From Candidatus Zixiibacteriota bacterium (GTDB lineage: Bacteria > Zixibacteria > MSB-5A5 > GN15 > FEB-12), in assembly GCA_035380245.1 (NCBI GenBank), contig DAOSXA010000001.1:145925-209924 (forward strand): a stretch of DNA of 64,000 bases, read 5' to 3'. The notes under the pieces were generated by a model. The model was not told the origin of the DNA, made no database searches, and worked only from the letters and a program-made list of their open reading frames with translations. This document shows positions 10,498-30,327 of this stretch, piece by piece. A program made the translations under genes and the position numbers. Position 1 is the stretch's first letter; each line of letters starts with the position of its first letter.

Positions 10498-10690
10498 AGT
10501 CCCGGAGACCGGGGGCCAGCGGTGCTGCAGGTCTCGGAGAGACCGGCAATTACAATTGTCGAAACCCTCAGGTTCCGACCTTATCTCTGGATGCCGGCCT
10601 TCGCCGGCATGACGGCCGTGAGGTTAACAGTGTCAAATACCAATGATCGGCTCCCCAGTGATGCGATAGTGCCGTATTTCCCCGCATCAT

Positions 10691-10799
10691 GCCGCTTTGC
10701 CTACGGCATAATTGTCGTATATTACATCCATTATGAAGCCTTGTAGAACGAGTGGGAGTTCTCTTCTGGAAACCCTGGGCAAGCCCAGGGCCACCCGAC
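10691..10799 (+). repeat. Dispersed repeat family B, solo copy (inverted relative to 28162-28471)
   Basis: The reverse complement aligns to the 155-bp units at 28162-28471 (ggtggccctgggcttgcccagggtttccagaaga.aactccc.ctcgttctacaaggcttcataat...). Confidence 0.8.
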
Positions 10800-23979: not shown

Positions 23980-24243
23980 CATTTCTATGAGGATGTAACC
24001 TGAGTTCTCCGCAGGTCGGATCCGTCTTCGAATCCGACCACACATTATCGAAACATCGCTTCACGATCCCCCTTCGGTGGACAGGAGTTTCGACTTCTTC
24101 CATTCATGCGCCATTCTCGTTGTGCCGACCGTGTTCGAGACATAGATTAGGTTTGTGCGATAGGAACGGGTGGCTCCCCCTTCAAACGGATTCCCGTCAT
24201 CGCACAACAATCGCCGGTTAACTTAAATCGAAGGAGCTTGATA

Positions 24244-24876
24244 ATGCGTTCCATTCTAACTCGTTGCTTGCCCATAGCAATCGTTCTTACCGTCGTGGCC
24301 GGGTGGGGCGGAGTGGCGGCTCAGACCGCCGTTCCCGAGTTTTCCGGGGATGTGGTGATCACGAAAGCCGACTCAACGACCGTTCTCGGTCGAATCTACG
24401 TTCACGATCCGCGTGTCCACCGATTCGAAATAACGCCTGAAAACGGCGGAGAGGTGTATCTGAAGCCTTCGTCGTCGCGCGGACGAATCTGGATTCTCAA
24501 TCCGGCCAACAAACAATTTCGTGTGATCGGACCGGGCTTTGCCACCCGGACGGAGCCCTGGACATTTTGGACCGACTACCGCAACGACATGCGCGGCGGA
24601 ACGGCCGGCACGGATACGATATCAGGATTCTCCTGTACGGTCTATGAGTTCAAATATTCCGAGGAGGACCCGATCACGGCCCGCTGGTGGGTGGCCGACA
24701 CGCTGATGCGACCGATCAGGATCGAGGCCGACACTAAGATCGCCGTAGGAGTTGACTCCGCTTCCGCCTTCATCTATGAACCGGTCGCAGGGACTCTGGA
24801 AATTCGCAACATCAAGCTGGAGGACCTGCCCGATTCGCTGTTTGTTGTTCCGGAGGATTACACCGAGACGGAATAG
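24244..24876 (+). CDS. Secreted hypothetical protein
   Basis: The SD AAGGAG lies 7 nt before the ATG at 24244. Signal peptide MRSILTRCLPIAIVLTVVAGWGGVAAQ. No family recognised. Confidence 0.5.
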   Translation: MRSILTRCLPIAIVLTVVAGWGGVAAQTAVPEFSGDVVITKADSTTVLGRIYVHDPRVHRFEITPENGGEVYLKPSSSRGRIWILNPANKQFRVIGPGFATRTEPWTFWTDYRNDMRGGTAGTDTISGFSCTVYEFKYSEEDPITARWWVADTLMRPIRIEADTKIAVGVDSASAFIYEPVAGTLEIRNIKLEDLPDSLFVVPEDYTETE

Positions 24877-24986
24877 CCCTGTAATACCTTAAAAAAAGCG
24901 GAGAGGCAGGGATTCTCAGCCCACTTTGCAGCACAAGTCGTTGAATGACAGCCAACTATCTGCCGGACAACGAGAAACGCAAGATC

Positions 24987-25066
24987 AGTTTCGGTGAGTT
25001 TCGGTTAGTTTGAGTGAGTTTCAGCACGTTTCAGAGCGTCACGCCGTTAGAAAATCGTTAGAAAAG
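24987..25066 (+). repeat. Short tandem direct repeats (5 x 10 bp, then 2 x 11 bp), iteron-like
   Basis: agtttcggtg/agtttcggtt/agtttgagtg/agtttcagca/cgtttcagag at 24987-25036, then cgttagaaaat/cgttagaaaag at 25045-25066. Confidence 0.75.
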
Positions 25067-25268
25067 CGCACAGGATCGCCGCGAGACGGGATGGACCTCG
25101 CTCCCGAACTCGGCGAGCTTGCCGCCGGTTCGGCCGTACACGACCGGTGGGCTCAGCACATGGGGCCTCACTCATTAGTCTCGGCCCGAAGGTGCAGTCT
25201 CCCACGGATCCCATGTTGTCAGCGCTGTAGACAGAAACAGACGCTGTGAAAAAACAACCGTGTTCCGA

Positions 25269-26141
25269 CTAGTGCGATTTTATTCCACTAACCACGTGTA
25301 ATACCGATCCATCAAACCGGTAGGTGCGGTAAGGGGGTATGGTATCAGTAACATACAGAAAGGAAGCATCTGGAGCGATGACCGGGTCAAAGAAGCCGCT
25401 CAATCCAAGAATTTCGGTAACCCTATGCGTGGTGAAATCATACAGAGCGGGCTGCCCCCCGGAGGCGTTGAAGACGAGCTTGCGGTTGCCATCTATCAAA
25501 CTACATCTAGAATCCGCGCCTAAAAGTGGACTACCCGAATCGTCGACCAGCACTGCCTCGCTATCGTCCCGGAGGCTCACGACCTTGATTCGAGTTCCGT
25601 TGTACAGCAAAGAGTCCTTCCCTATAGGTGCCAGGCTGAAACAGAAGTCCATGAGCACTCCGAGGTGCAACTCCTCCAAGGCTCCGCTGTCGAAGTCGTA
25701 AACCCAAACATATGTTTCAGGTCCTTCATCTGTTCTCCCCCCGAAGAGAATGTAGAGCCGTCGTAGTCCGCTGTCGATACATGCCGCGTCTGCACTTATT
25801 CCCAGCAACATCTCCAGTTGCGTCTGCCCGCCGGTGTTGATGTTCAGCGTATGGTATGCAATGTCCTTGCTACCAATGAACAGGGTGCTGTCGTCGAGCC
25901 AATTGACAAACGGCCAATCTGTGCCGCGAGGCCACGACTCTACGGTTGCCATGAGGTCGCCGCTAGGAAGCAGCACCTTCAGGTAAGAGGAGTCATTGGC
26001 AAGTACTACAGTTGCGGTTAGTCCACGGTTAGGAGAAATGCACTCTACAGATCCATCTATGGGCACCCCCCCGACCCTTGCTTCACATGATGCACCGAGT
26101 ACGACCAGTGCAATTGCGACCAAGGCTATAGCACTCTTCAT
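25269..26141 (-). CDS. Lipoprotein, beta-propeller-like; candidate immunity protein for the upstream RHS toxin
   Basis: The SD AGGAG lies 7 nt before the ATG at 26141. Lipobox VVLGASC. Located 64 nt downstream of the rhs stop. The immunity role is inferred from position only. Confidence 0.45.
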   Translation of the reverse strand: MKSAIALVAIALVVLGASCEARVGGVPIDGSVECISPNRGLTATVVLANDSSYLKVLLPSGDLMATVESWPRGTDWPFVNWLDDSTLFIGSKDIAYHTLNINTGGQTQLEMLLGISADAACIDSGLRRLYILFGGRTDEGPETYVWVYDFDSGALEELHLGVLMDFCFSLAPIGKDSLLYNGTRIKVVSLRDDSEAVLVDDSGSPLLGADSRCSLIDGNRKLVFNASGGQPALYDFTTHRVTEILGLSGFFDPVIAPDASFLYVTDTIPPYRTYRFDGSVLHVVSGIKSH

Positions 26142-26205
26142 GATTGACTCCTTTAGCGATAGCACTCCATCAATACGTTTTCTCGCAACATATGTACAAT
26201 GCTGG

Positions 26206-28089
26206 TCAATGTGCCGAAGCAGCACTCAACCACAAAAGAGGCGGCTTAGGCATCCTCCAGCGCGTGTAGAGGAAATACTCAGGCGGCCTCTTATACGAGA
26301 AGCTAGCTTTATTGTGATCAGGCTTCCACGCTTCGGCCAAGCCAGGCTCAGAGTTACATAGCGTTGTAGGGTTAATGTGCACGCCAGCCTGAAATGAACC
26401 ACTCCGGCTAGGGTTCTGCACAGCACCAGGCAGAACCACGTCGAGATGACCGCTCAATTGCTGCCCGCCTGGCAGCACGTCTCCCTTCTGAGCAGCCACC
26501 ACTAGGTGGCCCGAGTTCACCAGATCCCCTACACGCGACTCGGCACAAGCGGACCACTCGCCAGACGAGCTGATGTCGTCGTATAGCTCGTTCGCTGACC
26601 TGGTTTGAGTTATCCCGTCGTCTTTCATTGCCCCTTCGAACGCAGTAGGGAACTTCATGGGGTCAGAAGATGCCGATTCATGTGCAGCGAGGATCTGAGT
26701 GAATTCAATTGTTGTTCTGACACATGCCAGTTTCTCGCCAATATGTTCATCGTGCACGAATTGTCCTGCGTCGGCCATGAACGACGTGATCACTGTTTCC
26801 CTCGTATCATGGTACTTGCCCCATAAGGCATCAGCCTCTACGCTCGACGCCGACAACACGGACGGCGGCAATTCACCATCTCCATCGCTCGAAGAAGGAG
26901 CGACAGTGCTCGGTGATGCTGCCCCCCAACTTGCCGTCCAGGCATCCAGCTTTGCCGCCCCTATATTGGCGAGAGTGGTGCCTGCCGTAAAGGCCAAACC
27001 GCCGACATCCCATTTGCCTTGCCGGGCGCTGTTATAGCCAAACCTTATCCCGTGTCCTTTGAGTCCTCCTATACACCCCAGTAGCTTTCCTTCCGCCTGG
27101 CTCATAAGCGCTAAGCCTAATGCGCTCCAACCTGCGTCACGCCCGCCGTATTTGAAGGCATTGTAGATGTTGCCGACTTGCTTAGCCGCACTGTACGCAG
27201 CATATGCCTTTAGTGCCCAAGCCAACGCAGCGACAGCCCAGTTTCCGTCCTGATCGACCATAGACACAGGGTTATTGGCACAATATACAAACCCGGATGC
27301 GAACTGTGAAGCCTTATCTATAGAGGTGAAACGTCCAAGATCTGAATCATAGTACCTGGCACCGAAGTAGTAATAATCGAATGAACCCTCATCGTCCTTC
27401 TCTTTTCCCGTGAAGCGCATGTCTGTCTTGTAGTTACCCCATGCCTCCATGGTGCCACCGTAAGGGTAATAGTTGTAAAATTGGACCACCGCGGCTGTGT
27501 CAAATATTCCTGAAGGATCGTTCATGACAATCCTCGTGGACCCCAAGTGGTCGCCTATGAAGTAATTCAGCTGAGCATTGTCGTTCTCGTGGAAAGTCGC
27601 AATTCGGCCACTGGGACCGTTAACATATAGGTCTATCACATCATCGTCTTGATCGAACGTGGCGATAAGAGTGCTGCCTTCATACAGATAGTATGTGTAC
27701 ACAGTGTTCTGCTTGACGCACAGCGTGCCTCCACCACCTCCAATCGCCTCGGTTGTAACACCCCCTAATTCAGGAAGGCTATTGACTCCGAATTCTATTC
27801 CGGGCACAGTGTCATCGTCACACTCTGTCCAGTAGTTGTAACGGTACTTCTTCATGATGCGCTGACCGGTGTGGTCGTAGCTACAGTCGACCGTACAATT
27901 GACACCTGGAATTGTGTTTGGGGGCTGCACCGCTCGTGTGACCAGATTGCGATAATCGTAGTACATTGAATCAAGGCCCTTTGCCGAGTCGGCAACCAAG
28001 TTTCCCAGCGCATCATAGTACATAGATTCACCGACAGGCATATCGCTCGTTCTGGCCAATCTCGAGGACCCGGTCGTGGTATCGTACAC
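26206..28089 (-). CDS. RHS/YD-repeat protein fragment: 5'-truncated repeats, RHS core, about 340-aa unassigned C-terminal toxin region
   Basis: YD repeats (YYDALGNLV, YDYRNLV) and RHS core (YYFGARYYDSDLGRFTSIDKA...NNPVSMVDQDGNW). The reading frame stays YD-like (RYYAYNALGNRTQTIFDGDTITYVYD) up to about 28161, where repeat B begins. No N-terminal domain and no SD. Confidence 0.8.
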   Translation of the reverse strand: MYDTTTGSSRLARTSDMPVGESMYYDALGNLVADSAKGLDSMYYDYRNLVTRAVQPPNTIPGVNCTVDCSYDHTGQRIMKKYRYNYWTECDDDTVPGIEFGVNSLPELGGVTTEAIGGGGGTLCVKQNTVYTYYLYEGSTLIATFDQDDDVIDLYVNGPSGRIATFHENDNAQLNYFIGDHLGSTRIVMNDPSGIFDTAAVVQFYNYYPYGGTMEAWGNYKTDMRFTGKEKDDEGSFDYYYFGARYYDSDLGRFTSIDKASQFASGFVYCANNPVSMVDQDGNWAVAALAWALKAYAAYSAAKQVGNIYNAFKYGGRDAGWSALGLALMSQAEGKLLGCIGGLKGHGIRFGYNSARQGKWDVGGLAFTAGTTLANIGAAKLDAWTASWGAASPSTVAPSSSDGDGELPPSVLSASSVEADALWGKYHDTRETVITSFMADAGQFVHDEHIGEKLACVRTTIEFTQILAAHESASSDPMKFPTAFEGAMKDDGITQTRSANELYDDISSSGEWSACAESRVGDLVNSGHLVVAAQKGDVLPGGQQLSGHLDVVLPGAVQNPSRSGSFQAGVHINPTTLCNSEPGLAEAWKPDHNKASFSYKRPPEYFLYTRWRMPKPPLLWLSAASAH

Positions 28090-28161
28090 ATATGTAATGG
28101 TGTCGCCATCGAAAATGGTCTGAGTCCTGTTTCCCAGGGCGTTGTATGCATAATACCGAGT

Positions 28162-28471
28162 GCCGGGTGGCCCAGGGCTTGCCCTGGGTTTCCAGAAGAA
28201 AACTCCCGCTCGTTCTACAAGGCTTCATAATAAATGTAATATACGACAATTGTGTCGTAGTGCAAAGCAGTATGACAGCGAAACCTCGCTGCGGCGCTTC
28301 GCAAATCCCACCCGAGGCCGGGTGGCCCTGGGCTTGCCCAGGGTTTCCAGAAGAAAACTCCCGCTCGTTCTACATGGTTTCATAATAAATGGAATATATG
28401 ATAATTGTGCCGTAGTGCATAGCGGTATGACAGCGAAACTTCGCTGCGTCGCTTCGCAAATCCCACCGAGG
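28162..28471 (-). repeat. Repeat family B, two tandem 155-bp units
   Basis: Units 28162-28316 and 28317-28471 align gaplessly. Each has an internal GC palindrome, an AT-rich core, and ends in a CCCACCC hairpin. Confidence 0.85.
28238..28265 (-). promoter_or_regulatory. Sigma-70-like promoter inside repeat B unit 1, facing the truncated rhs gene
   Basis: Minus strand reads TTGCAC-16 nt-TATATT. The -10 TATATT is conserved in all three B copies. The -35 varies (TTGCAC, ATGCAC, TTGCCT). Confidence 0.3.
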
Positions 28472-28677
28472 GGTGGGGCACCAAAAAGATGAAGAGGGAT
28501 TCCCGCTTTCGCGGAAAGACGCTTTCGGAGGTATGCTGCTGCAGGGGCAGACGAGACATCTGTCGCCCACGAAATCCCACCCGAGGGGTGGGGCACCTTT
28601 GTCCGAAACTTTCAGATTTATCCCACCCGTGGACGGGTGGGCCATTCGGCTGCAATTCCCACCCGTGGACGGATGGG
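28307..28677. repeat. Cluster of five REP-like hairpins (CCCACCC-N3-4-GGGTGGG)
   Basis: Hairpins at 28307-28325, 28462-28478, 28576-28593, 28622-28641 and 28658-28677, each preceded by an a/t-atc or attc motif. Confidence 0.75.
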
Positions 28678-28719
28678 CCACCCCTTAATACTCCCGCTAT
28701 AATCCTGCGCATAAAAAAG

Positions 28720-28809
28720 CGGAGAGGCAGGGATTCGAACCCTGGATAGAGCTATTAGCCCTATAACGGATTAGCAATCCGCCGCCTTCAGCCTCTCGGC
28801 CACCTCTCC
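28720..28809 (-). tRNA. tRNA-Ser (anticodon GCU)
   Basis: 90 nt. Acceptor GGAGAGG/CCTCTCC, anticodon loop TTGCTAA, long variable arm, T-arm CAGGGTTCGAATCCCTG, discriminator G. CCA is not encoded. Confidence 0.93.
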
Positions 28810-28887
28810 GGCGATAAGAACTTACGAGGATGGAATATATCGGACCGGCTCGGTTATTTCAAGCCCTTTTTCCGCCCGATTGATGAA

Positions 28888-30327
28888 TTAACTGCGGTCG
28901 GACCGGCTCAGCTTGGCGGTTACCACGTGAGTCCCGTCCTGGGAAAAGATGACACCGTCCATTTCCTCTTCGATTTCCTTGACCAGGCAACCGACGTGGA
29001 TTTTTACCCCCGGATAGACTTTACCGACGGCAATCACGCGGGCATCGCGAAGAGCCAGGAGTTTTTCTTCGGTCTCACGCTTCTTCTTCTCCAGAGCCTC
29101 AAGAGCAACCGGGACATGTTTCCCGAACTGCTCCAGTTTGGCCAGCCCCTCCTCCTGCTGCGGAGTGAGTTTCTTGTCCAGTTGGAGCTTATAAAGGTCG
29201 TATAGCTTCTCTTTGACACGGGCGGCGTCGGTTTTCAGGCGAGCTATTTCGTGTGTGGCTTCATGGTACTGGCGCAACAGTTTCTCATCGTAAGCAACCG
29301 TCAGAACGGTCTGGGTACCGGCATCGGAGCCGATATCGGTAGCGCGAATTTCTTTGCCGGCGTTGATTTCACCCCCGACAATTTTACCCTTACGCCCCTT
29401 GACCATCACCCGCTCATGAGCGGTAACATGACAGTTGACCAGTTCTCCCCCGGATATTACATGCTCTCCGGCCGTAATCGTCTGCCCCTGGGCGTACTTA
29501 ATCGTAACATCGCCGTCAGCGTGCATAACCCCATCACCGCCGCCGTAAAAACCGCCTCGAACAAGGATGTTCCCCTTACAGAAGACTTTGGCATCCTCGA
29601 CATTGCCGCTCACCTCGAGATCCCCCCCTACTTTGACCTCAAAGCCGGTATGTATGTGCCCGGTAATACGCAGCGAACCGACACAGTCCAGATTGCCGAC
29701 GTTAAAATCGACATCTTTGACCTGCATGACATCCTTGACCGAGACACGCCCCTGTTTGAAGATAATGGCCCCGTCGCAACGCGCTCTCATTTCGAGCCCA
29801 CCTCCCACGATTTCTACATTCTCGCCGGGACTGAACGGGATGTTACGACCGCGCGGCGCCGAAATAGGGCGACCATCGACACCGGTGCCGGAGATACCAT
29901 CGGCGGGAAGCGTGCGCTTGACCAGCAGATCTCCCTTGTGGACGTTCTGAATATAACCCATGTCGCGATAATCGATGCGACCGTCGGGACCTTCCTGGGG
30001 CTGAAAACGATTTTCAGTCTGGAAAAAATACTCGAATTCAGTGTGCTTGCCCTGAACCATCGGGCTGCCCTTGGCCACCTCGATGCTTTGGCCGTAAGCC
30101 TGGCCGATAGCGGCTTCGACAATGGCATCTTCGTTCAAGCCATAGGTAACCCCGGCCAAACTGATCGCCTGGCGAATTTCCTCTTCGGTGACAGGCGGTT
30201 CTCCGGTAGTAGGCTGACTGATCGCAATTGTAGCAATCAGGCGATCCTTGGTGATATTCACCCGGACCCTTTTACGTCTTACGACGCTGTCCTTGTTTTG
30301 TATGTCGGGAGTCTCGGCCGGCGTCAT
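28888..30327 (-). CDS. FapA-family (DUF342) flagellar assembly protein
   Basis: Beta-helical repeats (VGGDLEVSGNVEDAKVFCKGNILVRGGF...GKIVGGEINAGKEIRATDIGSDAGTQTVLTV) and a C-terminal coiled coil. The ATG at 30327 is preceded by AGGAG. Confidence 0.75.
   Translation of the reverse strand: MTPAETPDIQNKDSVVRRKRVRVNITKDRLIATIAISQPTTGEPPVTEEEIRQAISLAGVTYGLNEDAIVEAAIGQAYGQSIEVAKGSPMVQGKHTEFEYFFQTENRFQPQEGPDGRIDYRDMGYIQNVHKGDLLVKRTLPADGISGTGVDGRPISAPRGRNIPFSPGENVEIVGGGLEMRARCDGAIIFKQGRVSVKDVMQVKDVDFNVGNLDCVGSLRITGHIHTGFEVKVGGDLEVSGNVEDAKVFCKGNILVRGGFYGGGDGVMHADGDVTIKYAQGQTITAGEHVISGGELVNCHVTAHERVMVKGRKGKIVGGEINAGKEIRATDIGSDAGTQTVLTVAYDEKLLRQYHEATHEIARLKTDAARVKEKLYDLYKLQLDKKLTPQQEEGLAKLEQFGKHVPVALEALEKKKRETEEKLLALRDARVIAVGKVYPGVKIHVGCLVKEIEEEMDGVIFSQDGTHVVTAKLSRSDRS

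Follow-up and report, generated by a model that had tools for sequence, protein, structure and literature searches.

A 3.8-kb islet at tRNA-Ser(GCU) of a Candidatus Zixiibacteriota bacterium is probably the decayed distal end of an integrative island

The window analysed here is a stretch of 64,000 nucleotides (C1:145925-209924, contig DAOSXA010000001.1) from the 3.75-Mb genome of a Candidatus Zixiibacteriota bacterium (GCA_035380245.1; 27 contigs, 97% complete). It contains an islet of 3.8 kb at the gene for tRNA-Ser(GCU). Both ends of the islet are marked by a directly repeated segment from the 3' part of this tRNA, and one of the two copies completes the intact tRNA. The islet is probably (at about 0.78) the decayed distal end of an integrative island that had entered the 3' end of tRNA-Ser(GCU). 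An initial annotation, made by a model from the letters of the window, had read the repeats as the attL/attR footprint of an integration and the islet as a decayed or trans-mobilised remnant. The footprint is supported by a conserved arm beside the displaced repeat, by integrases adjacent to tRNA-Ser genes and by full-size islands in relatives. Of the two fates offered, decay is favoured, because the genome has no intact cognate integrase and because this islet, like a second one on contig C3, has lost the integrase-proximal arm; trans-mobilisation found no support.

The 24-mer AAAAAAGCGGAGAGGCAGGGATTC is present in exactly two copies in the window (24892-24915 and 28713-28736), which are identical and in the same orientation, as the initial annotation had described them. 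None of 100 dinucleotide-preserving shuffles of the window contained two matches. By the ARAGORN and Rfam coordinates, the repeat begins in the T-loop, includes the 17-18 nt up to the discriminator with which the tRNA ends, and continues through a run of 6-7 T, in agreement with the 17 nt of tRNA plus 7 nt downstream noted earlier. Its 18-nt core occurs five times in the genome, i.e. at the 3' ends of three tRNA-Ser genes (GCU, GGA and CGA) and in two displaced copies, one in the window and one on contig C3 at a distance of 2 kb downstream from tRNA-Ser(GGA). With all five copies being tRNA-Ser ends or displaced islet copies, the core is not a dispersed repeat, a possibility that the initial annotation had itself raised. 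The 3' end of the fourth tRNA-Ser (UGA) differs from the common core. In base composition the islet is not distinct from its surroundings. The boundary features are the following:

28719-28809, minus strand: intact tRNA-Ser(GCU) gene (ARAGORN; Rfam tRNA 28720-28809, 58.2 bits), its 3' end being the putative integration target on the attL side
28713-28736, minus strand: tRNA-proximal copy of the 24-nt repeat, the putative attL core, consisting of GAATCCCTGCCTCTCCGC and TTTTTT
24892-24915, minus strand: second copy of the tRNA 3' end, displaced to the distal side and forming the putative attR core, separated by 14 nt from the stop codon of the neighbouring DUF4412 gene
24916-25066, minus strand: putative attR (P-type) arm with doublet, phased repeats and box, followed by the core

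The arm starts with the doublet TTTCTAACGATTTTCTAAC at 25046-25064, about 150 nt from the core. Five phased repeats of about 10 nt (GAAAC[T/G], about 24984-25038) and the conserved box TTCAACGACTT follow, and TRF reports short tandem repeats at 24987-25065. The arm is 94% identical to that of the second islet and was found at no other place in the genome. In a DNA-similarity scan of 60 relatives it was matched solely in the 24-nt region of the doublet. Starting from these weak matches, we scanned GTDB species genomes for the exact pattern TTTCTAACGATTTTCTAAC and obtained 41 loci. At 19 of these, five or six repeats with a unit length of 10-11 nt come after the doublet, and then a tRNA-Ser 3' fragment at 151-153 nt from it. 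Nearly all of these 19 loci are labelled Zixibacteria or unclassified bacterium, and the remaining loci of the 41 (Enterococcus, Poribacteria, Clostridia and others) are unrelated and show none of these features. Of the phased repeats, nAACTTnnnn is the form seen in most lineages, and GAAAC[T/G] that of the genome studied here. Twenty arms can be aligned nearly without gaps over about 180 nt, and the sequence of the repeats varies by lineage at constant phasing. The arm thus appears to be a conserved attachment-site module, to which an integrase would be expected to bind. Scans of metagenome contigs for the exact patterns of this arm subtype and of the distal junction gave no match in either case. 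In one relative (G022 contig C4, 40001-48000; L105) an arm with a core of the tRNA-Ser type was observed 1.2 kb downstream of tRNA-Ser(UGA), with a proC-like gene (pyrroline-5-carboxylate reductase) in between. This core may not be a copy of the tRNA-Ser(UGA)'s own end.

An integrase that fits this target was detected in relatives. At the syntenic locus of a genome of the same genus (G001), FapA and tRNA-Ser(GCU) are followed, after a spacer of 110 nt, by the gene for a tyrosine recombinase of 367 amino acids (aa), which scores below every NCBIfam equivalog cut-off. Homologues with 67-74% identity are encoded in G005, G029 (two), G022 (two) and G061. All seven integrases, that of G001 included, are located about 100-110 nt 3' of a tRNA-Ser gene (GCU, GGA or CGA) with the identical core. 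This assigns a target to the integrase family, namely the 3' end that three tRNA-Ser isoacceptors have in common. More distant homologues are found at tRNA-Leu (61% identity) and at tRNA-Met (50%). The family is uncharacterised and known only from uncultured Zixibacteria. The comparison of the locus in relatives, which the initial annotation had proposed, revealed occupied as well as empty sites: G001 and G005 share the order FapA, tRNA-Ser(GCU), integrase, and the GCU site of G014 has no integrase. The synteny of FapA and tRNA-Ser(GCU) is kept across the family, and FapA served as anchor in these comparisons. The DUF4412 gene on the other flank (window 24238-24876) had been tried for this purpose and was rejected, since none of 10 relatives has a homologue of it; the DNA on that side of the islet is therefore variable as well.

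The spacers between tRNA and integrase contain AACTT-type repeats, a conserved promoter-like site (TTGACA-17-TATnnT) and a TGTGNCNA doublet. In the form TGTGNCNA-N3-TGTGNCNA this doublet immediately precedes the integrase start in L050, G061 C4, G022 C16 and C11, and G029 C83 and C84, and is possibly an operator for the integrase or a regulator. A similar doublet, TTGTGACC, forms the distal arms of other attachment-site remnants in G014. In G029, arm and core are directly followed by such a spacer and the start of an integrase gene, as would be expected for a tandem junction or an attP.

No intact member of this integrase family is present in the genome studied here, nor did we find a recombinase ORF (open reading frame) or a Pfam integrase match between the two repeats, as the initial annotation had stated. 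Its second suggestion, a search of the genome for the 24-mer and for integrases next to tRNA-Ser paralogues, was borne out for the core at three tRNA-Ser genes; of a cognate integrase it yielded only a C-terminal fragment of 61 aa with 69% identity to that of G001 (C1:12905-13087; L059 12905-13087). In addition there are two Xer-like genes and two distant tyrosine recombinases, the latter on small contigs without the core. The integrase fragment converges on a gene for a 1500-aa FG-GAP surface protein. In G001, the neighbour of tRNA-Ser(GCU) and integrase is likewise a giant surface-protein gene with the same dockerin-like C-terminal end. Relative to FapA and the tRNA, the orientation of fragment and surface-protein gene is inverted, suggesting a rearrangement of about 160 kb with a break in the integrase gene. 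A simple inversion joining the fragment at C1:12905 to the islet locus was considered and rejected, as no 5' part of an rhs gene lies beside the fragment.

Full-size islands of relatives show what the islet may have looked like. On contig C16 of G022, tRNA-Ser(GGA) is followed by the integrase gene, about 28 kb of varied genes, an rhs gene encoding 2516 aa, a 283-aa ORF (immunity gene), one more gene, and an arm with one TTTCTAAC and six CTACTT repeats; a degenerate core is located at 39.5 kb. The complete chromosome of G014 carries an island of 36.7 kb with integrase at tRNA-Met. This island ends with an rhs gene encoding 2584 aa, small ORFs and an orphan Rhs tip of 267 aa with its own small ORF, after which the arms follow. 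At about 280.0-281.3 kb (L108, L091) three remnants, each consisting of an arm and a tRNA fragment, are arranged in series, two with tRNA-Ser and one with tRNA-Met cores. Their arms have the doublet TTGTGACC (two of three) or TTTCTAACG, and the last one is a 20-nt repeat of the tRNA-Met end. The series documents either successive integrations or att sites that were carried along, and it shows that the design of the attachment site is general. Full-length Rhs proteins are encoded by 21 of 61 relatives, several of which have short orphan fragments as well. Since the islands of relatives carry rhs and immunity genes beside arm and repeat, the islet of the window corresponds to the last few kb of such an island. 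Beside another arm (L065 8029-12772, G029 C4) we observed genes for a second tyrosine recombinase, a pentapeptide-repeat/TIR-domain protein and an HTH-TPR protein, a cargo that is defence-island-like.

All components of the islet listed in the initial annotation, i.e. a truncated rhs gene, a lipoprotein gene, 155-bp repeats, hairpins resembling repetitive extragenic palindromes (REP) and iteron-like short repeats, are present. Counted away from the tRNA, the islet consists of a trailer with a REP hairpin, further REPs, two 155-bp units, rhs, the lipoprotein-like ORF, a spacer of about 200 nt and the arm:

28637-28712, minus strand: tRNA trailer of 76 nt with the REP hairpin CCCATCCGTCCACGGGTGGG
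28472-28636, minus strand: cluster of REP-like hairpins dispersed in the genome (more than 70 partial matches)
28155-28471, minus strand: two tandem 155-bp units (TRF); the end of each is formed by the palindrome CCCWGGGCAAGCCCWGGG and, behind it, CCACCCGGC
26206-28154, minus strand: 5'-truncated rhs gene (ORF 26206-28089, frame open to about 28150, stop codon at 26206)
25269-26141, minus strand: lipoprotein-like ORF of 290 aa (MKSAIALVAIALVVLGASC...), starting 62 nt past the toxin stop codon

The trailer shows 96% identity to that of the second islet and about 80% to that of the unoccupied tRNA-Ser(CGA), and it is devoid of the promoter/operator arm that separates core and integrase in intact elements. 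A single CCGAAACT motif near the tRNA (about 28600) was discarded as a chance match, being absent from the second islet. The exact motif of each REP type is found 20-25 times in the genome. The 155-bp units each bear a weak promoter-like sequence facing the cargo (TTTGCA-17-TATATT, from a promoter scan), which may be active. In positions 24700-28950 the tRNA was the sole Rfam match (E <= 1), so that neither the 155-bp unit nor the arm is accounted for by a known RNA family.

The frame of rhs begins directly past the last 155-bp unit. It encodes the last 290 aa or so of the YD-repeat shell/Rhs core and a C-terminal toxin region of 344 aa, and the N-terminal part is missing. Residues 207-282 match the Rhs-associated core TIGR03696 (E 3.9e-17). 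In its shell part the fragment shares 40-45% identity with the C-terminal shells of Rhs proteins of 2500-2800 aa in relatives. Its C-terminal region is unique and gave no sequence match in Pfam or PDB. No other Rhs, full-length or otherwise, is encoded in the 97%-complete genome. The lipoprotein-like ORF belongs to no Pfam or NCBIfam family, so that its presumed function as cognate immunity protein is deduced from its position behind the toxin. Its one homologue (75% identity) lies beside another small ORF on an unrelated metagenome contig of 2.4 kb, a different context, which makes it uninformative on the structure of the island. The only other assembly shown to have the identical immunity gene is the independent short-read assembly Logan SRR4236672, in which a contig of 3.16 kb is 100% identical to window 25035-28194. 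This contig ends exactly at the shared repeats and, being identical and broken there, gives no information on polymorphism.

The second islet of the genome comprises 2 kb at tRNA-Ser(GGA) on contig C3 (L006 8410-10445). It is composed in the same order of tRNA, trailer with REP, one 155-bp unit, a toxin tail of 77 aa, ORFs of 250 aa and 191 aa (the latter a TPR protein), arm and repeat. The toxin tail matches positions 35-101 of the 104 positions of Pfam Ntox44 (E 7e-11) and, starting at position 35, is 5'-truncated, too. Between the two islets, tRNA end and trailer are 96% identical over 107 nt, the 155-bp units 92-94%, and arm and repeat 94% over 175 nt. Elsewhere they do not match, and their cargo is unrelated. 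Beyond the distal end of the C3 islet, the flank has kept a resemblance to the trailer of a native tRNA. In another species (L095), which is syntenic with the C3 locus, a lipoprotein gene and a 512-aa ORF lie between tRNA-Ser(GGA) and an arm with a 24-nt repeat. A further islet (L085) contains a HExxH-like toxin piece, a lipoprotein gene and an IS3 fragment ahead of the arm. The genomes of L085 and L095 gave no close integrase homologue at E <= 1e-30, their assembly completeness not being established. An islet was also suspected at tRNA-Ser(CGA) of the genome studied here, as a 155-bp unit is situated 3.4 kb downstream, and was rejected, since no displaced core, arm or toxin fragment is present there.

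From these data a course of events may be proposed. An island of this family would have entered tRNA-Ser(GCU), and another one tRNA-Ser(GGA), by site-specific recombination, catalysed by a tRNA-Ser-specific tyrosine integrase as judged from the homologues. In the intact relatives of about 37-39 kb, the tRNA with the core is followed by a promoter/operator arm of about 100 nt, the integrase gene, varied cargo, a full-length rhs and the immunity gene or genes. At their distal end these immunity genes, with or without orphan Rhs tips, are succeeded by the arm of about 150 nt with its 9-mer doublet and five or six helically phased repeats and by the displaced tRNA 3' end. As can be seen in the sequence, the islet is without the whole stretch that begins with the integrase arm and ends midway through rhs, and a native-like tRNA trailer, REP hairpins and two 155-bp units have taken its place. 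Of the island, the sequence still shows both cores and the distal arm, together with the final third of rhs and the lipoprotein gene downstream of it. This remainder may have been kept because it has an essential tRNA on one side and, on the other, an immunity gene that would still protect the cell against neighbours with a matching toxin. Having neither a cognate integrase nor an integrase-side arm, the islet is most likely immobile now.

Several observations weigh against this course of events. Both truncated toxins and the cargo of L095 begin right after a palindromic end of about 34 nt (...CCCWGGGCAAGCCCWGGGCCACCCGGC or ...CTGGAAACCCWGGGCAAGCCCWGGGCCACCCGGC), which is the end of the 155-bp low-copy repeat unit. 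The palindrome CCCWGGGCAAGCCCWGGG has eight copies in the genome, three of them at the toxin truncation points of the two islets, and its two central W positions flip together, so that the hairpin is kept. Two or three independent random deletions are not expected to end at one motif, and the junction may therefore be functional, e.g. a recombination site or a promoter-bearing unit. The mechanism of the deletion is not explained by decay as proposed here. Moreover, the trailer resembles those of the unoccupied tRNA-Ser(CGA) and of the empty site of G014. As simple integration would have pushed the native trailer to the far side, extra steps are needed, such as a gene conversion between tRNA-Ser paralogues, and the resemblance suggests such conversion among the tRNA-Ser loci after integration. 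In several relatives, tRNA-adjacent integrases occur without an arm or repeat within 20-60 kb, and that the integrase binds the arm is something we only infer. Besides window 28155-28471, the 155-bp unit or its hairpin end was observed at window 10687-10797, C3:100506-100677 and C1:1108336-1108594.

Alternatively, it might be that the islets are still-mobile, non-autonomous mini-islands, the toxin-immunity cassettes of which, each flanked by a 155-bp unit and the arm, are excised and integrated in trans by the tRNA-Ser integrase of an incoming island or moved together with such an island after accretion, shuttling among the three tRNA-Ser genes with one core. We think this unlikely. Slightly less credence still is given to its wider form, in which the two islets and L095 constitute a living family of mini-islands, with exchangeable cassettes of toxin remnant and immunity gene lying between a promoter-bearing 155-bp unit with a conserved hairpin end and the arm plus core, and captured or moved in trans by the tRNA-Ser integrases of visiting 37-39-kb Rhs islands; the three tRNA-Ser genes with a common 3' end would then be an integron-like platform collecting immunity genes. 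Such mobility would account for two islets in one genome, at two different tRNA-Ser genes, that have ends of 94-96% identity and unrelated cargo, and for the presence, in another species (L095), of yet another cargo framed by this palindromic end and an arm of the same type. The arm is well conserved even in genomes without the integrase, cis-mobilisable elements (CIMEs) have been described to be mobilised in cis after accretion (PMC5704250), and a tandem junction is present in G029. However, there is no cognate integrase in the genome studied here or in those of L085 and L095, and the attL side of the islets is without the integrase-proximal arm, i.e. the AACTT repeats, the TTGACA-17-TATnnT site and the TGTGNCNA doublet. 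Likewise, tRNA-Ser(CGA) is unoccupied despite its having the same core, and the exact-pattern scans of metagenome contigs yielded no further copies of arm subtype or junction.

That no site-specific integration took place at this locus, and that homologous recombination or gene conversion between the regions of tRNA-Ser paralogues, which have tRNA 3' halves, trailers, REPs and 155-bp units in common, copied a segment of arm and core with adjoining DNA to it from elsewhere, appears quite improbable. Indeed, the trailers of the three tRNA-Ser genes are homogenised though the 5' halves of the tRNAs differ, REP and 155-bp repeats are found at the junctions, and the inverted integrase fragment at C1:12905 beside the surface-protein gene points to large rearrangements in this lineage. 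Nevertheless, a segment of arm and core would still have to derive from an attR somewhere, and with unrelated cargo one islet cannot be a copy of the other. The same locus is the integration site in relatives, and the likeness of the C3 islet's distal flank to the trailer of a native tRNA is what a genuine integration should leave behind. That the repeat is a coincidence or was produced by the assembly, for which the sole argument is that the source is a metagenome-assembled genome, is effectively refuted and of negligible probability: no shuffle gave two matches, the same architecture exists in many genomes, and the Logan assembly reproduces 25035-28194 at 100%.

Decay of an integrated island thus remains the preferred reading, and it can be compared with known systems. 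Genomic islands and prophages that target tRNA genes by means of lambda-type tyrosine integrases were reportedly classified by Williams (2002); the identity block of this type begins in the T-loop and extends to the tRNA's 3' end. Like islands with tRNA-targeting tyrosine integrases, the family described here has a repeat of the tRNA 3' end, an integrase adjoining the tRNA in intact relatives and an arm of short motifs at a fixed distance, and whether its site is occupied or empty differs between relatives. Unlike them, the islet lacks the integrase and the integrase-side arm, and the family uses three tRNA-Ser isoacceptors with one 3' end. Decayed elements retaining attL and attR are known as CIMEs (PMC5704250). 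As in these, no recombination genes are left in the islet, both cores and the distal arm are kept, and tandem accretion is found in relatives (G029, G014). It differs from them in that the parent islands have no known conjugation genes, that no functional element is adjacent and that the attL arm is apparently lost, which makes cis-mobilisation doubtful. The islet may therefore be called CIME-like, the retention of a functional attL being unclear because the integrase-side arm is not recognisable at the tRNA.

Orphan rhs tips have reportedly been described in Salmonella by Koskiniemi et al. in 2014. The islet resembles such orphan Rhs modules in that a 5'-truncated toxin retains the end of the conserved core, with a presumed immunity gene behind it that is likely kept for protection; orphan tips downstream of a full rhs gene occur in relatives (G014), too. 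In contrast to these modules, the islet has no full-length rhs partner, and the truncation abuts a dispersed repeat unit instead of a preceding immunity gene. Orphan toxin-immunity modules of the Rhs, CDI and T6SS types and arrays of orphan immunity genes are also known, e.g. from the sequential displacement of effectors in Vibrio cholerae (PMC5361080). A gathering of immunity genes and toxin remnants at a recombination-defined site is a feature that the islet has in common with integron arrays and with the recombinase-associated acquired interbacterial defence (rAID) clusters. Such clusters were reportedly found in Bacteroidales by Ross et al. in 2019. Unlike in these arrays, there is no adjacent recombinase or cassette array, each tRNA site holds one cassette, and the 155-bp unit is not repeated between genes.

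The architecture of the arm, with the doublet, the phased repeats and the core at about 150 nt, can be used to delimit islands in metagenome-assembled genomes of Zixibacteria. The rhs and immunity genes of these islands are located at the distal ends, and it is the immunity-proximal end that survives decay, as would fit orphan immunity being selected for. Taken alone, the islet is a genome scar of an ordinary kind; the recurrent truncation at the hairpin end of a repeat is the one point that maybe hides something new. On the 5' side of tRNA-Ser(CGA) we observed a dense array of REP-like repeats (L007 9369-10300), and the tRNA-Ser loci of this genome seem to be preferred sites of REPs.

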